Shown here one piece after another: positions 1 to 62,141 of a stretch of 64,000 bases of DNA. Numbering within the stretch: the stretch's first letter is position 1; each line of letters begins with the position of its first letter. This DNA is from Escherichia coli (GTDB lineage: Bacteria; Pseudomonadota; Gammaproteobacteria; Enterobacterales; Enterobacteriaceae). A program made the translations under genes and the position numbers. The notes under the pieces are model-generated. The model saw only the letters and a program-made list of their open reading frames with translations. It had not been told where the DNA came from and searched no databases. The DNA lies in NCBI RefSeq assembly GCF_030013205.1, contig NZ_CP122648.1; one strand, written 5' to 3'.

Positions 1-447
1 CTGAACACTTTCAATTTCGTTATCATTTGAAATAGGAGTAATACAACCATTTATTATGGTATAACCAACGCCATGCTTTTTAAAGATGGAATTGAGATGC
101 TTCGATAGATTAATATATGAATTAGTTCTCTCAATGATGAACTCAATTAAATCATATACCAAATACCATGCTTCCCCATATATATAATCTCGGATAGCAG
201 TCAGCAACGTCTTATCACTTTTGTATCCACTTTCATAACGAGGAATATTATCCGCAGGTTGATTTAGATAATATATCCACACAGACTGCGCACATTTTGT
301 TGCTGTAGCAGTTTGACGATTGTTAGTCCAAAGGAAAAGATATAAGCAATTCCACAATGCCATGCGTGTATCAGAATTAAGATCATTCAGCTGGACATGC
401 TCTCTAACGTCAACATGACCATACCTCACAGAAAATGGCTTTATCAT
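1..447 (-). CDS. hypothetical protein, N-terminal ~149 codons only (gene runs off the window start)
   Basis: ATG at 445-447 on the minus strand opens a stop-free frame to position 1 (MIKPFSVRYGHVDVREHVQLNDLNSD...). Absent from the ORF track because it has no stop in the window. No family recognised. Confidence 0.35.
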   Translation of the reverse strand, partial: MIKPFSVRYGHVDVREHVQLNDLNSDTRMALWNCLYLFLWTNNRQTATATKCAQSVWIYYLNQPADNIPRYESGYKSDKTLLTAIRDYIYGEAWYLVYDLIEFIIERTNSYINLSKHLNSIFKKHGVGYTIINGCITPISNDNEIESVQ

Positions 448-977
448 TCTTCCCCTGCCTGATTGTTATGTTCGTTTAAATTATGCAGTCTAAGTTTGAT
501 ACAATCATATATTAAGCAATAGAATCCATAAAGCCCCGTTGGTGGTAAGACAACAAGCGGAGCCTCTTGCGACTTCATCAGGGTTATGTCAGTTAGTGAG
601 GCTTATCAGGATGACCATGTACCCAAGGGGAGCGAGGCCGAACCGCTGGCAGAGCTTGCATATGGTCTGCAAGTACCGTGACCACCATAAACCTGTTTAT
701 CCCCTGCGGCGTCTCGCGACGGCGACAGAATGGGGGCATCGGGCTAAAATGCGCTGCACTAAAAGTTTTGGGATTGTTTAGAGACGGTGGCTACGTCATA
801 GCTTTCAAGTTGAGTCAGTACGTGTTTGACGCTTGGAACGACACGCCGCTATGAGTTAACATCCCAATTACCACTATCAACCACAGCGGCTTTTTCAAGG
901 GACATAACAGAGCATTTCTTACAGGCAAAAGAGACAGATTTAATCGTCTAACTAACTGTATTGTAAGGAATTTAGTA

Positions 978-1005: not shown

Positions 1006-1484
1006 TAAGTCTCTATAACCTGCTGTAATCACGTTCCTGTTAGCTGTTAAGAGAGCAATCGTAGGACCTTTTTGTTCTAGGGGCTACATATTAAGTTTGA
1101 TCCGCTGGACGGAATCAAACCGAGTGTTCGTGGCGGCATAAAACATCAACGTGCCATACCTGCCTTTTAATGTTTCTGGAGGTCTGCCGAGTCGGGAGGA
1201 AAGAACATTTGTCAGCTATGTGGACGTTGAATAAACGCCACTGCGTTCGGATTTTGAAACCAGTTAGACCCCGGCAGACCTTGTTCAGAATAACTATTTA
1301 ACTCAATGTTATTTATATGAATTAAGCCATTAAGAGCCAAAGCGAAACGCCACCGTAACGCACCCGCATTTTGCTGTTTTATTCACTCTTATAGAAACAA
1401 AGGGCTGATGAAACATAAGACTATCAGCATCTAATGAATACTGTTCATCCATACAGCATAAAAATTCATAAACTTACACTTGAG

Positions 1485-1949
1485 CTACTTTCTCAGTTTG
1501 TCCCACCGAACCGCTGATACGATACCCCAGTTGCCGCTAGGATTAGGCCTACGCCATTTTGCTGTCTCCATGCTACGAAGATACTCAAGAGCTTCAGCAA
1601 ACGTGCCAAAACGCTTCTGAGCCGCTTTATCACCTACGCCAAACGAACCATCACGGGTGCTCGCCAAACCGGGGTGAAAACAGGAACCATCGGCTGCGTA
1701 TGGAACCAACAGTTCCGAGTCGTTATCTTCAGATGGGCCAGGCGCTAACAACTGCCACGGCTCAACGCTCAGAGCGTTAGCCAGCACCTCAATCGCATCC
1801 AGAGACGCATTAGAGCCACCACGTTCAATTCTGCTCATATAACTACGTGCAAACCCGCACCGATCGGCAAAGGCCTCTTGGCTCAATCCGGTGGCAATGC
1901 GCAGTTCTTTTACCCGCTCGCCAAACTGTATTCTCAGGGATTTTTTCAT
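1485..1949 (-). CDS. XRE-family (Cro/C1-type) HTH transcriptional regulator with ~90-aa C-terminal domain of unknown function
   Basis: HTH_XRE motif IQFGERVKELRIATGLSQEAFADRCGFARSYMSRIERGGSNASLDAIEVLANAL. Start placed at internal MKKSL; the ORF track extends to 2042 but the extension precedes the HTH and looks spurious. Confidence 0.7.
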   Translation of the reverse strand: MKKSLRIQFGERVKELRIATGLSQEAFADRCGFARSYMSRIERGGSNASLDAIEVLANALSVEPWQLLAPGPSEDNDSELLVPYAADGSCFHPGLASTRDGSFGVGDKAAQKRFGTFAEALEYLRSMETAKWRRPNPSGNWGIVSAVRWDKLRK

Positions 1950-2199
1950 GCACTGAATGTGCAATTTTGACCACTGTAAGGCCACGCTCCATATGAGATA
2001 TTTTGAATCCAATCTCACTTCAGCGAGCTTAGTCACTAGCATTCATCGGCTGTATCATGACAATCCTTTTTGATTCAAAACAAACACCAATGGTGACATT
2101 TAAAACCCAACAAGTATGATGATCATCATCGGTTGGGCGTCACCAGCGTTCGCTATCAGGCGCGATGTGGTTTGGAAAGTGAGGGAATCATGACGGGAG

Positions 2200-3603: not shown

Positions 3604-4164
3604 TCAATCGGTAATAGCTGCTACAGTCGCTCTTGAAACGCCATATTGACGCGCTAACGCACTGATACTCAAACCGCTATTCTTTTTCTCTAAAATCTCT
3701 CTACGGGCTTCTGACGCGATTTTAGGAGGTCTGCCCAATTTCTTACCTTCGGCTTTTGCTCGTGATAGTCCCGCCTGAGTGCGCTCAATCAGCAGATCAC
3801 GCTCCATCTCCGCAACCGCGGCGAGCATAGATAATAGCAACTTCCCAGCGGCAGAAGTGAGATCTGTGTTACCAAGCTGGTGGACAAGAACCTTGATATT
3901 ACGGTCAGCCAGCGCCCTTACCGTTTGCAAGACGTCAATCGCATCACGCCCCAGACGATCAAGCTTCGCTACCACCAACGTTTCACCATCGCGGATTTTA
4001 TTGAGCATTTCAGAAAATGCTTTACGTTGCATTGCCGGAACCTTCCCGCTAACAACATCGGCAAACCAGTAATCAATTTGCCACCCAGCCTGCCCAAGCT
4101 CCAGCCGTTGGTTCTCAGTATCCTGCTGCGATGTCGAAACACGTCCGTAGCCAAAAGTTGCCAT
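3604..4164 (-). CDS. small serine recombinase (resolvase/DNA invertase family)
   Basis: MATFGYGRVSTSQQD catalytic-Ser N-terminus, ...LDRLGRD..., C-terminal HTH (LSISALARQYGVSRATV). Start at internal Met; the track extension to 4233 precedes the conserved N-terminus. Confidence 0.85.
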   Translation of the reverse strand: MATFGYGRVSTSQQDTENQRLELGQAGWQIDYWFADVVSGKVPAMQRKAFSEMLNKIRDGETLVVAKLDRLGRDAIDVLQTVRALADRNIKVLVHQLGNTDLTSAAGKLLLSMLAAVAEMERDLLIERTQAGLSRAKAEGKKLGRPPKIASEARREILEKKNSGLSISALARQYGVSRATVAAITD

Positions 4165-4355
4165 TGTTATCTCCCCATCTGACCCCTGCCAGAAAACGAG
4201 GCCAACATTAGGATGGCCTGCCAGAAAAGCCAAGGCTATTTTTCCAACAGTGTGAAAGCGTGCGATTGGGAGGTGCCAGAAAACGGTCGTTTGTTGGCGC
4301 TTAAAACGGATAAAGACATGTTAGGCTGAAACCATCACTTCATAAGGACAACCGA

Positions 4356-4823
4356 AATGATTAAAGACGCGATTTTTCACCGTGCGGTCAATATCGCTAC
4401 TCGTTATCACGAGTCTGGGACGAATCAAAACCATATGCCCTTTTCATAGGGCTAAACCCTTCATACGCCGATGCTGAGAAGGATGATCGCACCTTGAGCC
4501 GCTGCATATCGTTTGCCAAAAGCAGGGGCTACGGTGGCGTATACATGGCCAACCTGTTCGCATTCGTTCACACCCAGCGACATGAAATGATGAAAGCGTC
4601 TGATCCCATTGGCAAAGATAACGATAGCCACTTGATACGTCTTGTTAGCGGTGCCGGACTGGTTGTCGCCGCATGGGGAAATGAAGGAAGACACCTCAAA
4701 CGCTCAACGACCGTCCGACAGCTATTGCCAGAGAGCACAATGTGCTTCGTCTTAAACGCTACAGGTGAGCCGAAGCACCCTTTGTATATGAAAAACGACA
4801 GTGTTCTCATACCTTTAGGTTAA
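4356..4823 (+). pseudogene. DUF1643-like gene, apparently frameshifted
   Basis: ATG near 4356 gives MIKDAIFHRAVNIATRYHESGTNQNH... then a stop. A different frame carries the conserved core ...FIGLNPSYADAEKDDRTLSRCISFAKSRGYGGVYMANLFA... through to the stop at 4823. One frame change around 4410-4440 is needed to join them; exact position uncertain by a few nt. Confidence 0.5.
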
Positions 4824-5828
4824 CATCGATAACTGCGTTCAGAATATGAACGCAGCCATATGATATATATGACTTTTCTTTAAAATGATGGTGTGCTAGC
4901 TTCTCTCCTGACACCTACCTCATGCGGTAAACCGGTCCGGGTAGGTGGAGATCACCGCTGTTTAGCGGAAGACGTCAGGATGGGAACTCTGCGTAACGTT
5001 GATTGTGGTAGGTAGGGCGCGCAAGCGTTTGATGCAGCCAAGCAGAGGGTGAAAGTAGCTATCGGCGGATTCTTGAGTAGCTTCTTTTGCGCATAATGCA
5101 TCTTTCAAGAAAGGTCGTCACACCACGAGGAAGACTTGATCTTCATCTGGCAAGGGGAACCGAGCAACCTACAGGCTATCTTCTCAGATGGCCTTATGGT
5201 TGATATGTCCGGCTTCCCCCCCGAGGAAGGGTTTACATCTTAAAGAACAAGTTATGTTTTAACATTTTTAACAATTACACTTCTCTGCTGTTTGGTGTCT
5301 TATGGCGTTGCCGTCAAAAGTAAACCTGCCGTTTTTACCTCTCCTGCGTAACAACCAAATACGAACCAGAAGCTGCTAACGTTCAACGTGTTCGCGGTGT
5401 AAATGCAGCCAGATAAGTTGGGAGCGAAAAAGTGGATGCCCTAGGTTTGGAAGCGCCCCTCTCAGGCATAGCGTCCGAAAATTTCCACGGCGGCAGGCTT
5501 ATCCTTATAGAGCCAAACAGACTCAAAAGTTAAGAAGCGCGGTAAAGCTTAAAGCTCGCCCAGATTTCTCATTGATTGCTCGAACTCCGCTACGCTTGTT
5601 TCAACTGGCTTCGCCAGTCACTCTATGAGAGCGCCGCGAATTCTGCACCATGATTTCGACTACCTTCTTTAAAACACTCGCCAGAGAGCCTTACAGCGCG
5701 TTTGAACCGCATATCGCAGCTTTTGCTTACGGATGACTGTCTGATTAGCAGTAGCTTCATGGCCCAGTCCGGTTTACTTTATTGCTATCAACAAGGGAGC
5801 CGTCCAGAGGCGACGCGGAGATAATGCT

Positions 5829-6161
5829 TTGAGAACCGTCGAGATACTGCAATACACCTTACGCAAAGGCAGCGGTGCCGCTTTTCACGCCATTATGCAG
5901 GAAATCAGTGTTCCCCTACACCAACGCCACGGGATCGATGTTGTTTCGTTTGGTAACTCTCTGCATGACCCGGACTGCTATTACCTGATTCGCGCCTTTG
6001 TCAGCCCTAAAAGCATGACTACGGTTCTCGACGCTTTTTACGCAAGCGATGACTGGCGCAGCGGCCCGCGCGAAGACATCATTGGCAACATAGAGGCCAG
6101 CATTAAAACAGTGATAAATCTACCATCAGAAAGCGTAGAAGGGCTGCGGGTGCAATCGTAG
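5829..6161 (+). CDS. NIPSNAP/dimeric alpha-beta-barrel-like small protein
   Basis: 110 aa, TTG start with GGAG 8 nt upstream. Sequence pattern (EILQYTLRKG...YYLIRAF...DDW) resembles the NIPSNAP family from memory. Confidence 0.5.
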   Translation: MRTVEILQYTLRKGSGAAFHAIMQEISVPLHQRHGIDVVSFGNSLHDPDCYYLIRAFVSPKSMTTVLDAFYASDDWRSGPREDIIGNIEASIKTVINLPSESVEGLRVQS

Positions 6162-6293
6162 GTCATCAAGTTTCACCAAACGTGTTTTGAGCGTCTCCAA
6201 ATTCAGCACTATGAAATCCACCACCCTTAATAAAAAACGCGCCAGGAAGCGTCCCAGCGCATTCAAGCATCACTCAACTGAATAGTAACTGAT

Positions 6294-8246: not shown

Positions 8247-8294
8247 GCAAAATTATGGATTAAATTGTTTTAAAACAACGACTTAGATAAGACT

Positions 8295-8379
8295 TGGTGC
8301 CGAAGGCCGGACTCGAACCGGCACGTATTTCTACGGTTGATTTTGAATCAACTGCGTCTACCGATTTCGCCACTTCGGC
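8295..8379 (-). tRNA. leuX: tRNA-Leu (CAA), leuX
   Basis: Reverse complement reads GCCGAAGTGGCGAAATCGGTAGACGCAGTTGATTCAAAATCAACCGTAGAAATACGTGCCGGTTCGAGTCCGGCCTTCGGCACCA (85 nt, CAA anticodon, CCA end). Confidence 0.95.
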
Positions 8380-32800: not shown

Positions 32801-32940
32801 AAGGAGTCCCTCCGCACTGTCTGAAACAGTACAGAAATGTCTTCAGGCGTGGCGAAGCCTTACCTGAAGGTAATAAAGCTGAGCAGGGACGTTAAAACGT
32901 CACGGCCTTACGCATCCGGTAACGCCGTGAAAAGACGGGC
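32801..32940 (-). promoter_or_regulatory. mgtA 5' leader (Mg2+/proline-responsive)
   Basis: Lies between the mgtL leader ORF and the mgtA start; assignment by position and established knowledge of the mgtLA leader. Confidence 0.6.
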
Positions 32941-32994
32941 TTACCGAAAAAGTTTTAATCTCCGTCGAGGGAGAGGCGTGGGATCAGGTTCCAT
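32941..32994 (-). CDS. mgtL: mgtA leader peptide
   Basis: [17 protein letters not shown] (17 aa), the last 18 codons of track ORF 32941-33282. Confidence 0.85.
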
Positions 32995-33178
32995 ATAACC
33001 TCCGGTAAGTGAAAAAAGCGCCGCAAATAATAAGGAGAATCCAATAATATTCGTAGCATTTATGGCGATATAATACCTGCTGGCAACTAAACCAACGATA
33101 AACCAGACTTTACCCATTGCTGAATGCACGGGTAAAGTTAGCCTCAAATAATTAAACAACACGTTACGGGACAACAGG

Positions 33179-43149: not shown

Positions 43150-43285
43150 ATGTGAGTATGGTTTGCCGGATGCGGTGCACCTGTAGGCCTGATAAGACGC
43201 ATCAAGCGTCGCATCAGGCACTATGCTCAAATGCCGGATGCGGCGTGAACGCCTTATCCGGCCTACGCACACTATATCAGGCTAA
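43150..43285. repeat. REP elements
   Basis: tgccggatgcggtgcacctgtaggcctgataagacgcatcaagcgtcgcatcaggc... Confidence 0.8.
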
Positions 43286-49399: not shown

Positions 49400-49520
49400 C
49401 CCCGGTGTAAAGCGTGCTCCCAGTAGGCATGATAAGACGCGGTAAGCGTCGCATCAGGCTTCAGCGCACCACCGCCGGATGCGGCGCGAGCGCCTTATCC
49501 GGCCTACGAATCGGCATCAG
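49400..49520. repeat. REP elements
   Basis: gataagacgcggtaagcgtcgcatcaggc / gccggatgcggcgcgagcgccttatccggcctac palindromes. Confidence 0.8.
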
Positions 49521-58439: not shown

Positions 58440-58560
58440 TGCGTTTTGTTTATGCCGGATGCGGCGTAAACGCCTTACCAGGTCTACAAAATCGTCCAAA
58501 TTCAATATATTGCATGGACTGCGTAGGCCTGATTGGCATAGCGCATCAGGCAGTTTTGCA
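58440..58560. repeat. REP elements
   Basis: tgccggatgcggcgtaaacgccttaccaggtctaca ... gcgtaggcctgattggcatagcgcatcaggc. Confidence 0.75.
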
Positions 58561-58728
58561 TTTATCAGCAGTCTGAATTTTAACCCTCTGGCGGCTTTAC
58601 AGTACCTTACGCTATACTAGCCACTGAAAATGCCGGTTCACTTTCTTCGAATCGGCTTTCAATGTGTATTTCACACAAATTAATCAACTTCCCCTTCCGA
58701 GGATCTGGCCTGAAAGGTCGGATAAGAT

Positions 58729-61952: not shown

Positions 61953-62141
61953 TTCTCCACCTCGTCTCTGTGAGCGGTGTTAACTTATTGTTTTACTTAT
62001 ACCCTATCGTTAATGAATGCGCCAACTGTGATAGTGTCATCATTTTCAAAGCGTAAAATTGTGGCATTCTTCACTGTTCTATAAGTAAGGCGTTTATTCT
62101 CCCTTTTCTTTCGTATTCCCGATGATAAAAGGATGTCCCTG

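Follow-up and report, generated by a model that had tools for sequence, protein, structure and literature searches.

A mosaic ORF-free stretch of a leuX-integrated Escherichia coli island carries a conserved non-coding cassette, a candidate structured RNA

The DNA considered here is positions 4824-5828 of a window of 64,000 nucleotides (nt) from Escherichia coli (contig NZ_CP122648.1). This stretch is located in a 7.3-kb integrative element at tRNA-Leu, integrated at the leuX tRNA gene, between a DUF1643 gene and a gene named NIPSNAP. It contains no open reading frame (ORF) of 60 amino acids (aa) or more in any frame, the longest having 49 aa (4952-5101, minus strand). The first-pass annotation of the window was right on this point and on both flanking genes, the DUF1643 gene being a frameshifted pseudogene here. 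From comparison with related islands, it was found that the gap is a mosaic of blocks of differing histories. One of these blocks, called CORE, is with moderate confidence read as a transcribed non-coding cassette in the initiator slot of the element, where it would act as a structured RNA serving the element itself. CORE is probably an undescribed island-borne structured RNA for the element's own replication, maintenance or regulation.

The first-pass annotation offered decayed coding sequence, non-coding RNA and a cis-acting site as explanations and chose none of them. Each fits a different sub-segment. The non-coding RNA option suits 4905-5351, with its promoter region, compensatory hairpins, purifying selection, plus-strand folding and published RNA-seq signal, and the cis-acting option suits the two modules that recur at junctions, A (5352-5510) and B (5597-5704). 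Decayed coding sequence holds only for a short gene stump at 5549-5593; in the larger left part there is no trace of a pseudogene. The mosaic make-up, the wide conservation and the Rep-like gene that takes the same slot elsewhere were absent from that annotation. The features are collected in Table 1.

Table 1. Features of the ORF-free stretch and of the element that carries it.
Feature	Position	Strand	Remarks
Xre-type helix-turn-helix (HTH) regulator	1485-2042	-	Element gene
Invertase-like serine recombinase	3604-4164	-	Element gene
Membrane protein			Element gene
Protein with weak, sub-threshold DUF4062 match			Element gene; also matches PADLOC candidate family PDC-S60
DUF1643 gene, frameshifted	4357-4823		Element gene, left of the gap
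Palindrome/hairpin, perfect 9 bp, CTGCGTTCA-GAATA-TGAACGCAG	4833-4855	.	Marks the left end of the conserved unit; candidate operator, or else a terminator for the gene before it
Promoter-like region	4862-4902	+	Conserved TGATATATA at 4862-4870 and extended -10-like T.TGCTAnnnT at 4892-4902
CORE, non-coding cassette, candidate structured RNA	~4905-5351	+	Ultra-conserved centre 4969-5290
Hairpin 2	4912-4947	+	8-bp stem, 20-nt loop; predicted 5'-terminal stem-loop of the RNA
Hairpin 3, CCGCU-GUUU-AGCGG	4955-4968	+	Four invariant G-C pairs
Block A, left part	5352-5439	.	Conserved non-coding, common to CORE-type and Rep338-type islands
A-core	5440-5510	.	71-nt linear element ending in invariant TCCTTATA; cargo diverges directly after
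orf69 remnant	5549-5593	-	Last 14 codons (VAEFEQSMRNLGEL) and stop; rest lost by a deletion of ~225 nt at 5593/5594
Block B, internal copy	5597-5704	-	Degenerate copy of the integrase-proximal terminator module; weaker hairpin GGCGAGTGTTTTAAAG
NIPSNAP upstream region	5705-5828	+	Contiguous with NIPSNAP in all NIPSNAP-carrying loci
110-aa gene, NIPSNAP by RefSeq name	Right of the gap		Element gene
Block B, integrase-proximal copy (outside the gap)	6163-6265	-	Intrinsic terminator of the integrase gene (int), just 3' of int
Tyrosine integrase, 650 aa	6294-8246	-	Domains DUF6538, SAM-like (SAM_5) and Phage_integrase
tRNA-Leu(CAA) gene (leuX)	8295-8379	-	Integration site of the element

Conservation, hairpins and transcription of CORE

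About 45 loci (designated L with a number) were mapped. The related islands compared are inserted at tRNA-Gly or tRNA-Leu or are carried by plasmids, and they come from E. coli, Enterobacter, Yersinia, Serratia and metagenomes. A search of genome contigs using the integrase gave 5 loci only. Diverged copies of CORE were reached via five spurious short ORF calls on homologous DNA, and a metagenome scan with the loop of hairpin 2 gave 28 further loci, so that 20 distinct variants were available overall. The stretch is conserved among related islands, well beyond one type of E. coli island. The conserved unit has recurring recombination breakpoints at its boundaries, 4831 and 5509. Within it, segregating sites make up 13% of positions in 4969-5290 compared with 48-68% in the flanks, and the pairwise identity is 96-98% compared with 67-84%. 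The same trend is followed by ten lineage pairs, in which the ends of the unit are 16-33% diverged and the central 320 nt only 2-4%. The constraint persists even where the integrase of an island has only 35-46% identity to that of the window. These comparisons argue that CORE is under strong purifying selection.

Coding is excluded for CORE because of its small indels (1-2 nt, besides a 17-nt duplication) and broken ORFs. When 4824-5399 was translated in six frames and compared with 1.84 billion protein representatives, nothing but the five spurious ORF calls came back. Rfam, which the first-pass annotation had proposed to search, has no family matching the gap: with Rfam 15 at gathering thresholds there was no match in 4700-5950, at E values up to 10 there were two chance snoRNA matches of 14-16 bits only, and in nine related loci there were no island-internal matches. 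The CORE part has no similarity among 72,556 plasmids or 50,697 phages, and the hairpin-2 loop gave 0 matches in IMG/VR contigs. Folding favours the plus strand, with a minimum free energy of -145.2 kcal/mol (z -2.1) against -123.1 (z -1.0) on the minus strand and alifold energies of -108.6 against -86.7; the GC skew is positive over 4801-5250 only. CORE is present in 595 of 5426 complete E. coli genomes, or about one in nine, including O157:H7 EDL933, Sakai, Nissle 1917 and ATCC 25922, always in the chromosome and always with at least 90% identity, at a median of 1 place per genome. The window segment 4700-5950 is 100% identical in Nissle 1917, ATCC 25922 and many further genomes. RefSeq annotates the stretch in none of the approximately 600 complete E. 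coli genomes that carry it.

Upstream of CORE, about 80 nt are common to islands bearing a 338-aa gene in its place. In the T.TGCTAnnnT element, TGCTA and the last T are invariant in both CORE-type and Rep338-type islands while the middle three bases vary, and this was found in 9 diverged sequences (Rep338-type included) and in 24 CORE sequences. Because of the position of this candidate extended -10 element, transcription is predicted from the sequence to start at about 4910, directly before hairpin 2. The palindrome at 4833-4855 is also found upstream of the 338-aa gene (L002, L005, L009), and its outermost pair changes from C-G to G-C in 8 of 22 sequences. An imperfect second copy, with 3 mismatches to 4834-4854, is located at window positions 1242-1262, near the left end of the island and about 240 nt from the att repeat, where 0 copies are expected by chance. 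The presence of this second copy suggests an operator.

Both hairpins reported in the first-pass annotation are present: cacctacc and ggtaggtg pair at 4912-4919/4940-4947 around a 20-nt loop (hairpin 2), and ccgct and agcgg pair around gttt at 4955-4968 (hairpin 3). Alone they are near chance level, since by our estimate about 0.4 perfect 8-bp stems are expected per 1 kb; they become meaningful through comparison across homologues. In 23 distinct homologues, the three hairpins (the 4833-4855 palindrome, hairpin 2 and hairpin 3) are 96% paired against 27-46% in slid controls. At 4 pairs both bases have changed, in 17 cells altogether, and the observed covariation score was reached by 0 of 500 shuffles. 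Two pairs of hairpin 2 change from C-G to U-A in 3-4 sequences, with U-G intermediates seen, and at the fifth pair of hairpin 3, 13 sequences have U-A, 2 have A-U and 8 are unpaired. Loci that were not found through the hairpin-2 loop (L018, L020, L021) also have this loop unchanged. Other pairings among the ACCTAC/GGTAGG repeats were considered and rejected, as the arms of hairpin 2 covary with each other only.

Transcription of CORE in O157:H7 Sakai can be read from published data. Huecker et al. 2017 (PMC5597208, S2 Table) list XECs453 as a 'novel small gene without annotated homologs' of 120 nt in this strain, and its peptide MLASLLTPTSCGKPVRVGGDHRCLAEDVRMGTLRNVDCGR is the window ORF 4893-5015 on the plus strand (40 aa). 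The signal is on the same strand as the promoter-like region and immediately 3' of it. RNA-seq and Ribo-seq values were, in reads per kilobase per million (RPKM), 52.9 and 35.2 in LB medium (ribosome coverage value, RCV, 0.79), 117.2 and 9.6 in the BHI medium control (RCV 0.08), and 132.0 and 2.0 under BHI stress (RCV 0.02) (PMC5597208). The plus-strand transcripts therefore show little ribosome occupancy in two of three conditions, and the authors' classifier put XECs453 in the class 'pseudo'. They also reported 99.99% conservation over 705 Escherichia hits and noted near-100% conservation, Yersinia included (PMC5597208). Among the 16 distinct variants in our alignment, 8 have this ORF shortened to 3-16 codons or with a shifted frame, although the nucleotide sequence after it is conserved. 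With the ORF broken in half of the distinct variants, a non-coding transcript is the better reading of the XECs453 signal. The DNA is the same as that of the published candidate protein gene (PMC5597208), but the ORF is not conserved; the conserved unit is instead a non-coding cassette of about 450 nt with a promoter region, hairpins and a defined island slot. Among the entries covered of the EDL933 supplements on transcription start sites and non-coding RNAs, none has coordinates at this locus, and those covered of PMC10469882 give no transcription start site here. The EcOnc list of Tree et al. (paper and supplements) has no ECs52xx entry and none for this locus.

The initiator slot and competing explanations

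In islands L002, L005 and L009, window positions 4905-5351 are replaced by the 338-aa gene with its 5' untranslated region and about 165 nt of 3' sequence. The two alternatives (window 4905-5351 and L005 4751-6004) have the left region and block A in common as their flanks, the alignment to L005 picking up again at window 5352-5354. None of the mapped loci has both CORE and the 338-aa gene. The gene is present in 47 complete E. coli genomes, mostly at 80-90% identity. Its product has no match in Pfam, NCBIfam, PHROG or PADLOC, and its modelled fold is predicted to match RepD-type (Rep_trans) rolling-circle initiators. Since this RepD-like gene takes the place of CORE in sister islands, CORE can be said to occupy a replication or initiator slot. 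The gap itself as a pseudogene of the 338-aa gene was rejected, as tblastn gave chance matches only in the window.

Some further observations concern the slot. In L004, the roughly 640 nt from the recombinase to block A (5362-6000) are related neither to CORE nor to the 338-aa gene and have no annotated gene; they may represent an occupant of a third type. Directly after the 338-aa gene, at L005 5846-5962, lies a sequence of 117 nt that recurs at 95.7% identity in about 25 large plasmids of E. coli, Salmonella and Shigella. In H80, the one plasmid examined, this sequence comes after a copy of the 338-aa gene, is itself cut short by IS1 and lies beside MobI/TraI (MOBH) genes.

The proposed mechanism is as follows. 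CORE would be transcribed rightwards, on the plus strand, from the operator/promoter region 4833-4902, and hairpins 2 and 3 would form the 5' end of the transcript. The identical promoter region would drive the protein with the RepD-like fold in the sister islands. The CORE RNA could then act on the excised circle, by controlling or supporting its replication or its maintenance. It could also modulate the expression of orf69 (a small gene described below) and int, because CORE is convergent with both.

Several points weigh against this reading. We infer the function of CORE purely from its position. The promoter is not called by a consensus scan and a good -35 element is absent, while no convincing intrinsic terminator closes CORE, the sole candidate at 5329-5337 not being conserved; the ends of the transcript are thus placed by prediction. 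The core is too invariant for covariation, so RNA structure is supported for the three 5' hairpins only. The G-U and C-A intermediates do not decide the strand, and compensatory changes would be equally expected for single-stranded-DNA hairpins or for symmetric protein sites, so RNA rather than DNA as the selected entity is a presumption. The RCV of 0.79 in LB indicates some ribosome association of XECs453. Lastly, mosaic recombination is rampant among the islands and could add to the apparent conservation.

A DNA function for CORE is unlikely but deserves first consideration. CORE would be a cis-acting origin of the excised circle, either a rolling-circle double- or single-strand origin that uses a Rep338-like protein in trans or an origin of transfer, and its hairpins would form in single-stranded DNA. 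The slot shared with a RepD-like initiator, the compensatory changes in the hairpins and the lack of an initiator gene in CORE islands all agree with such an origin, and extreme conservation of the primary sequence is as expected of sites read by trans-acting proteins. On the other hand, there is no similar sequence among the plasmids and phages searched, E. coli genomes lack a second copy that might serve a helper as its site, and Rep338 occurs in 47 genomes while CORE occurs in 595. There are also no DnaA boxes and no IHF site in 4800-5620, only two AT-rich stretches. Moreover, a conserved promoter reads into CORE, and CORE is transcribed.

A more specific form of the RNA reading, to which we give a small chance, is that CORE is an RNA-only replication module, in which a pre-primer-like transcript from the rep promoter would form the origin of the excised island and host enzymes would suffice. 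CORE would then be the RNA equivalent of the RepD-like protein that sister islands encode in this slot. The analogy, with a ColE1-like RNA-primed origin, is drawn from the position of CORE, from its variable 5' hairpins with a conserved body, and from the traffic of modules with ColE1-type plasmids.

It is about as doubtful that CORE is a structured 5' untranslated leader through which the promoter at 4862-4902 drives plus-strand cargo, NIPSNAP here and hyp190-DUF4468 elsewhere. Such cargo does follow block A in many loci (L005, L021, L027, L031, L038), and no terminator closes CORE. However, in Rep338-type islands the same cargo follows a protein gene without CORE (L005, L009), and in several CORE islands (L003, L020, L028, L030) CORE is followed by orf69, which is read from the other strand. 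The nearest plus-strand gene of the window lies 920 nt away, beyond the stump of a minus-strand gene, and no riboswitch or leader family was matched.

That the stretch is junk or a decayed gene, with an apparent conservation coming from recent recombinational spread among islands, is very unlikely. Block exchange has indeed been recent, since DUF1643 and the left part have 98-100% identity in islands that share only 80% in their recombinase genes, and the element is decaying in this strain, as its DUF1643 gene is frameshifted and its orf69 truncated. But recent spread would have to account for the gradient within one unit, 4831-5509, between diverged ends and a nearly invariant centre in ten lineage pairs; no protein remnant was found among the 1.84 billion representatives, and the hairpins stay paired through double changes. 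Least probable is that the region encodes the 40-aa XECs453 protein, for which the LB Ribo-seq signal speaks but against which stand the broken ORF in half of the variants, the RCVs of 0.08 and 0.02 in the other conditions, the 'pseudo' classification and the absence of homologues except spurious calls.

We next compare CORE with known systems. The ColE1 pre-primer RNA II is a non-coding transcript of several hundred nt whose 5' stem-loops are variable and whose downstream part is strongly conserved. CORE bears a resemblance to it: it is non-coding, a promoter leads into a replication slot, and its 5' stem-loops are variable while the downstream part is conserved; in addition, the islands and ColE1-type plasmids exchange cargo modules. 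The differences are that an nhmmer profile of CORE has no match to the ColE1-type plasmids L007 and L015-L017, that there is no match to RNA I (RF00106) or another Rfam family and no Rop, and that the element is integrative. The comparison with RepD/RepC initiators (Rep_trans, pT181 family) and MobT relaxases concerns the 338-aa occupant of the slot and not the window.

The Salmonella Isr RNAs and the EcOnc, AsxR and AgvB RNAs of enterohaemorrhagic E. coli are mostly Hfq-type small RNAs of 50-300 nt with terminators. CORE is similar to them in being a non-coding transcript on horizontally acquired DNA that is missing from standard annotation, but it is longer and has neither a terminator nor an Rfam family.

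The islands also resemble integrons, as cargo lies near the integrase, each cargo is followed by a repeat of about 100 nt (block B), and modules recur in different replicons. Unlike attC, however, block B is a terminator hairpin with a U-run on the integrase-sense strand, and the array is located 3' of int. The island integrase is not IntI, scoring 18 bits to the XerA/integron-integrase model with a cutoff of 220. Homologous recombination at shared repeats accounts equally well for the integron-like pattern.

In a mobile element, it is rare to see so clean a swap of a protein gene, here for an initiator-like enzyme, and a non-coding cassette behind one promoter region, and this swap gives a direct experimental handle on the role of the RNA. 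If the RNA-only module were true, protein-based and RNA-based initiators would be interchangeable cassettes in one family of integrative elements. The analysis also defines a modular grammar of small tRNA-integrated islands (promoter, slot, block A, cargo, B repeats, integrase), reads XECs453, published as a 'novel small gene', as a segment of a non-coding RNA, and uncovers orf69 as an unannotated, widely conserved 69-aa gene.

Block A, orf69 and block B

The order of genes was derived from the approximately 45 loci. The left part of an island consists of the HTH gene (minus), the recombinase gene (minus), DUF1643 or another gene, CORE or the 338-aa gene, and the A-core. After the A-core comes orf69 (minus), or hyp190 and DUF4468 (plus), or nothing, and then block B. 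The right end has an optional NIPSNAP (plus) with a block B, optional other cargo with a block B, and the integrase (minus).

Apart from CORE and its upstream region, the gap has a right-hand part of 480 nt that consists of block A, the orf69 stump and block B. Block A (5352-5510) is present in all island types as a conserved element at the cargo junction. For its A-core, of which 26 distinct copies were collected, three explanations were rejected. It is not a small coding gene, since there is no 3-nt periodicity, indels of 1 nt occur and the C-termini differ between copies. It is not a structured RNA, as the alifold energy is about 0 on both strands. A miniature inverted-repeat transposable element or a transposon with terminal inverted repeats (A-core against block B) was supported by a weak match of 10/12 only, with no covariation. 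The A-core bounds a hyp190+DUF4468 module, which ColE1-type Klebsiella plasmids carry as well. The fragment from A-core through hyp190 and DUF4468 to B is 97.6% identical between island L005 and 6-kb plasmids of this type (L007 540-2123, L017), where it lies in the accessory region beside a cer-like XerCD site. In L017, both junctions of the module read CAGTTATT/TAGG, in inverted orientation.

The gene orf69 is intact, with 69 aa, at the same position in L002, L003, L004, L020, L028 and L030; on the minus strand its coordinates are, for example, 6189-6395 in L002, 6728-6934 in L003 and 6125-6331 in L004, and RefSeq annotates none of these. The deletion that leaves the stump in the window is shared with O157:H7 EDL933 and the metagenomic relative L018. 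There are 71 homologues, nearly all of 69-70 aa, which reach the alpha-proteobacteria, and the protein matches PHROG family phrog_27283. Its structural model, with a confidence (pLDDT) of 81, has a weak likeness to LacI-type helix-turn-helix headpieces (Z at most 5), from which orf69 may be a small DNA-binding regulator or an excision factor.

Block B was studied in 32 copies. Its hairpin is 83% paired against 30-56% in slid controls and is followed by a U-run (T5-6) on the integrase-sense strand; its many G-U pairs are valid on that strand only. A scan called a terminator-like site at 6264-6235 on the minus strand, in the integrase-proximal copy. In the mapped loci, copies of block B stand after int and on both sides of NIPSNAP and other cargo. 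Every NIPSNAP gene has a copy 5 nt after its stop codon and another about 125 nt upstream, and thus this cargo sits between B repeats.

The cargo found between B repeats or in the left arm includes a SduA_C (Shedu) protein, an AIPR protein, HNH endonucleases and an AAA ATPase (L020 3845-5002, L021 8505-9662, L002 1960-3735, L004 7953-9128, L003 7940-10234). AbiJ-like neighbours are also among the candidate defence cargo. The island family appears to be a carrier of candidate anti-phage genes.

Make-up of the element and of the window

The borders of the element are given by 28 nt of the tRNA-Leu 3' end, which are repeated directly at 978-1005 and 8292-8319. Its counterpart in Sakai is annotated as 'phage-like element SpLE5', and in the literature searched SpLE5 occurs only as the name of an element. 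The DUF1643 gene is intact in EDL933 and PapM-36-2, and the EDL933 copy matches Pfam DUF1643 at 1.3e-42. For the 110-aa 'NIPSNAP' protein, Pfam gave no match, so the name is that of RefSeq.

The spacer of 192 nt between the serine recombinase and DUF1643 genes contains, within window positions 4185-4285, three direct copies of TGCCAGAAAA(C/G)(G/C) (at 4187, 4219 and 4274), which are candidate binding sites of the recombinase or of a regulator. An invertible segment acted on by the invertase-like recombinase was rejected: there are no flanking inverted repeats above chance, and the orientation of orf69 and cargo is constant across loci.

A second, older island remnant lies in tandem to the element at leuX (window 1-977, L001 1-5278), with an AbiJ-NTD4 protein and IS30 and IS3 fragments. 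Elsewhere in the window, Rfam matched Ysr276, a magnesium riboswitch (Magnesium-II), four copies of naRNA4, ES036, STnc450 and ES239 (coordinates 14352-14546, 32894-33009, 15380-15551, 43186-43263, 49426-49504, 58488-58667 and 62019-62141).

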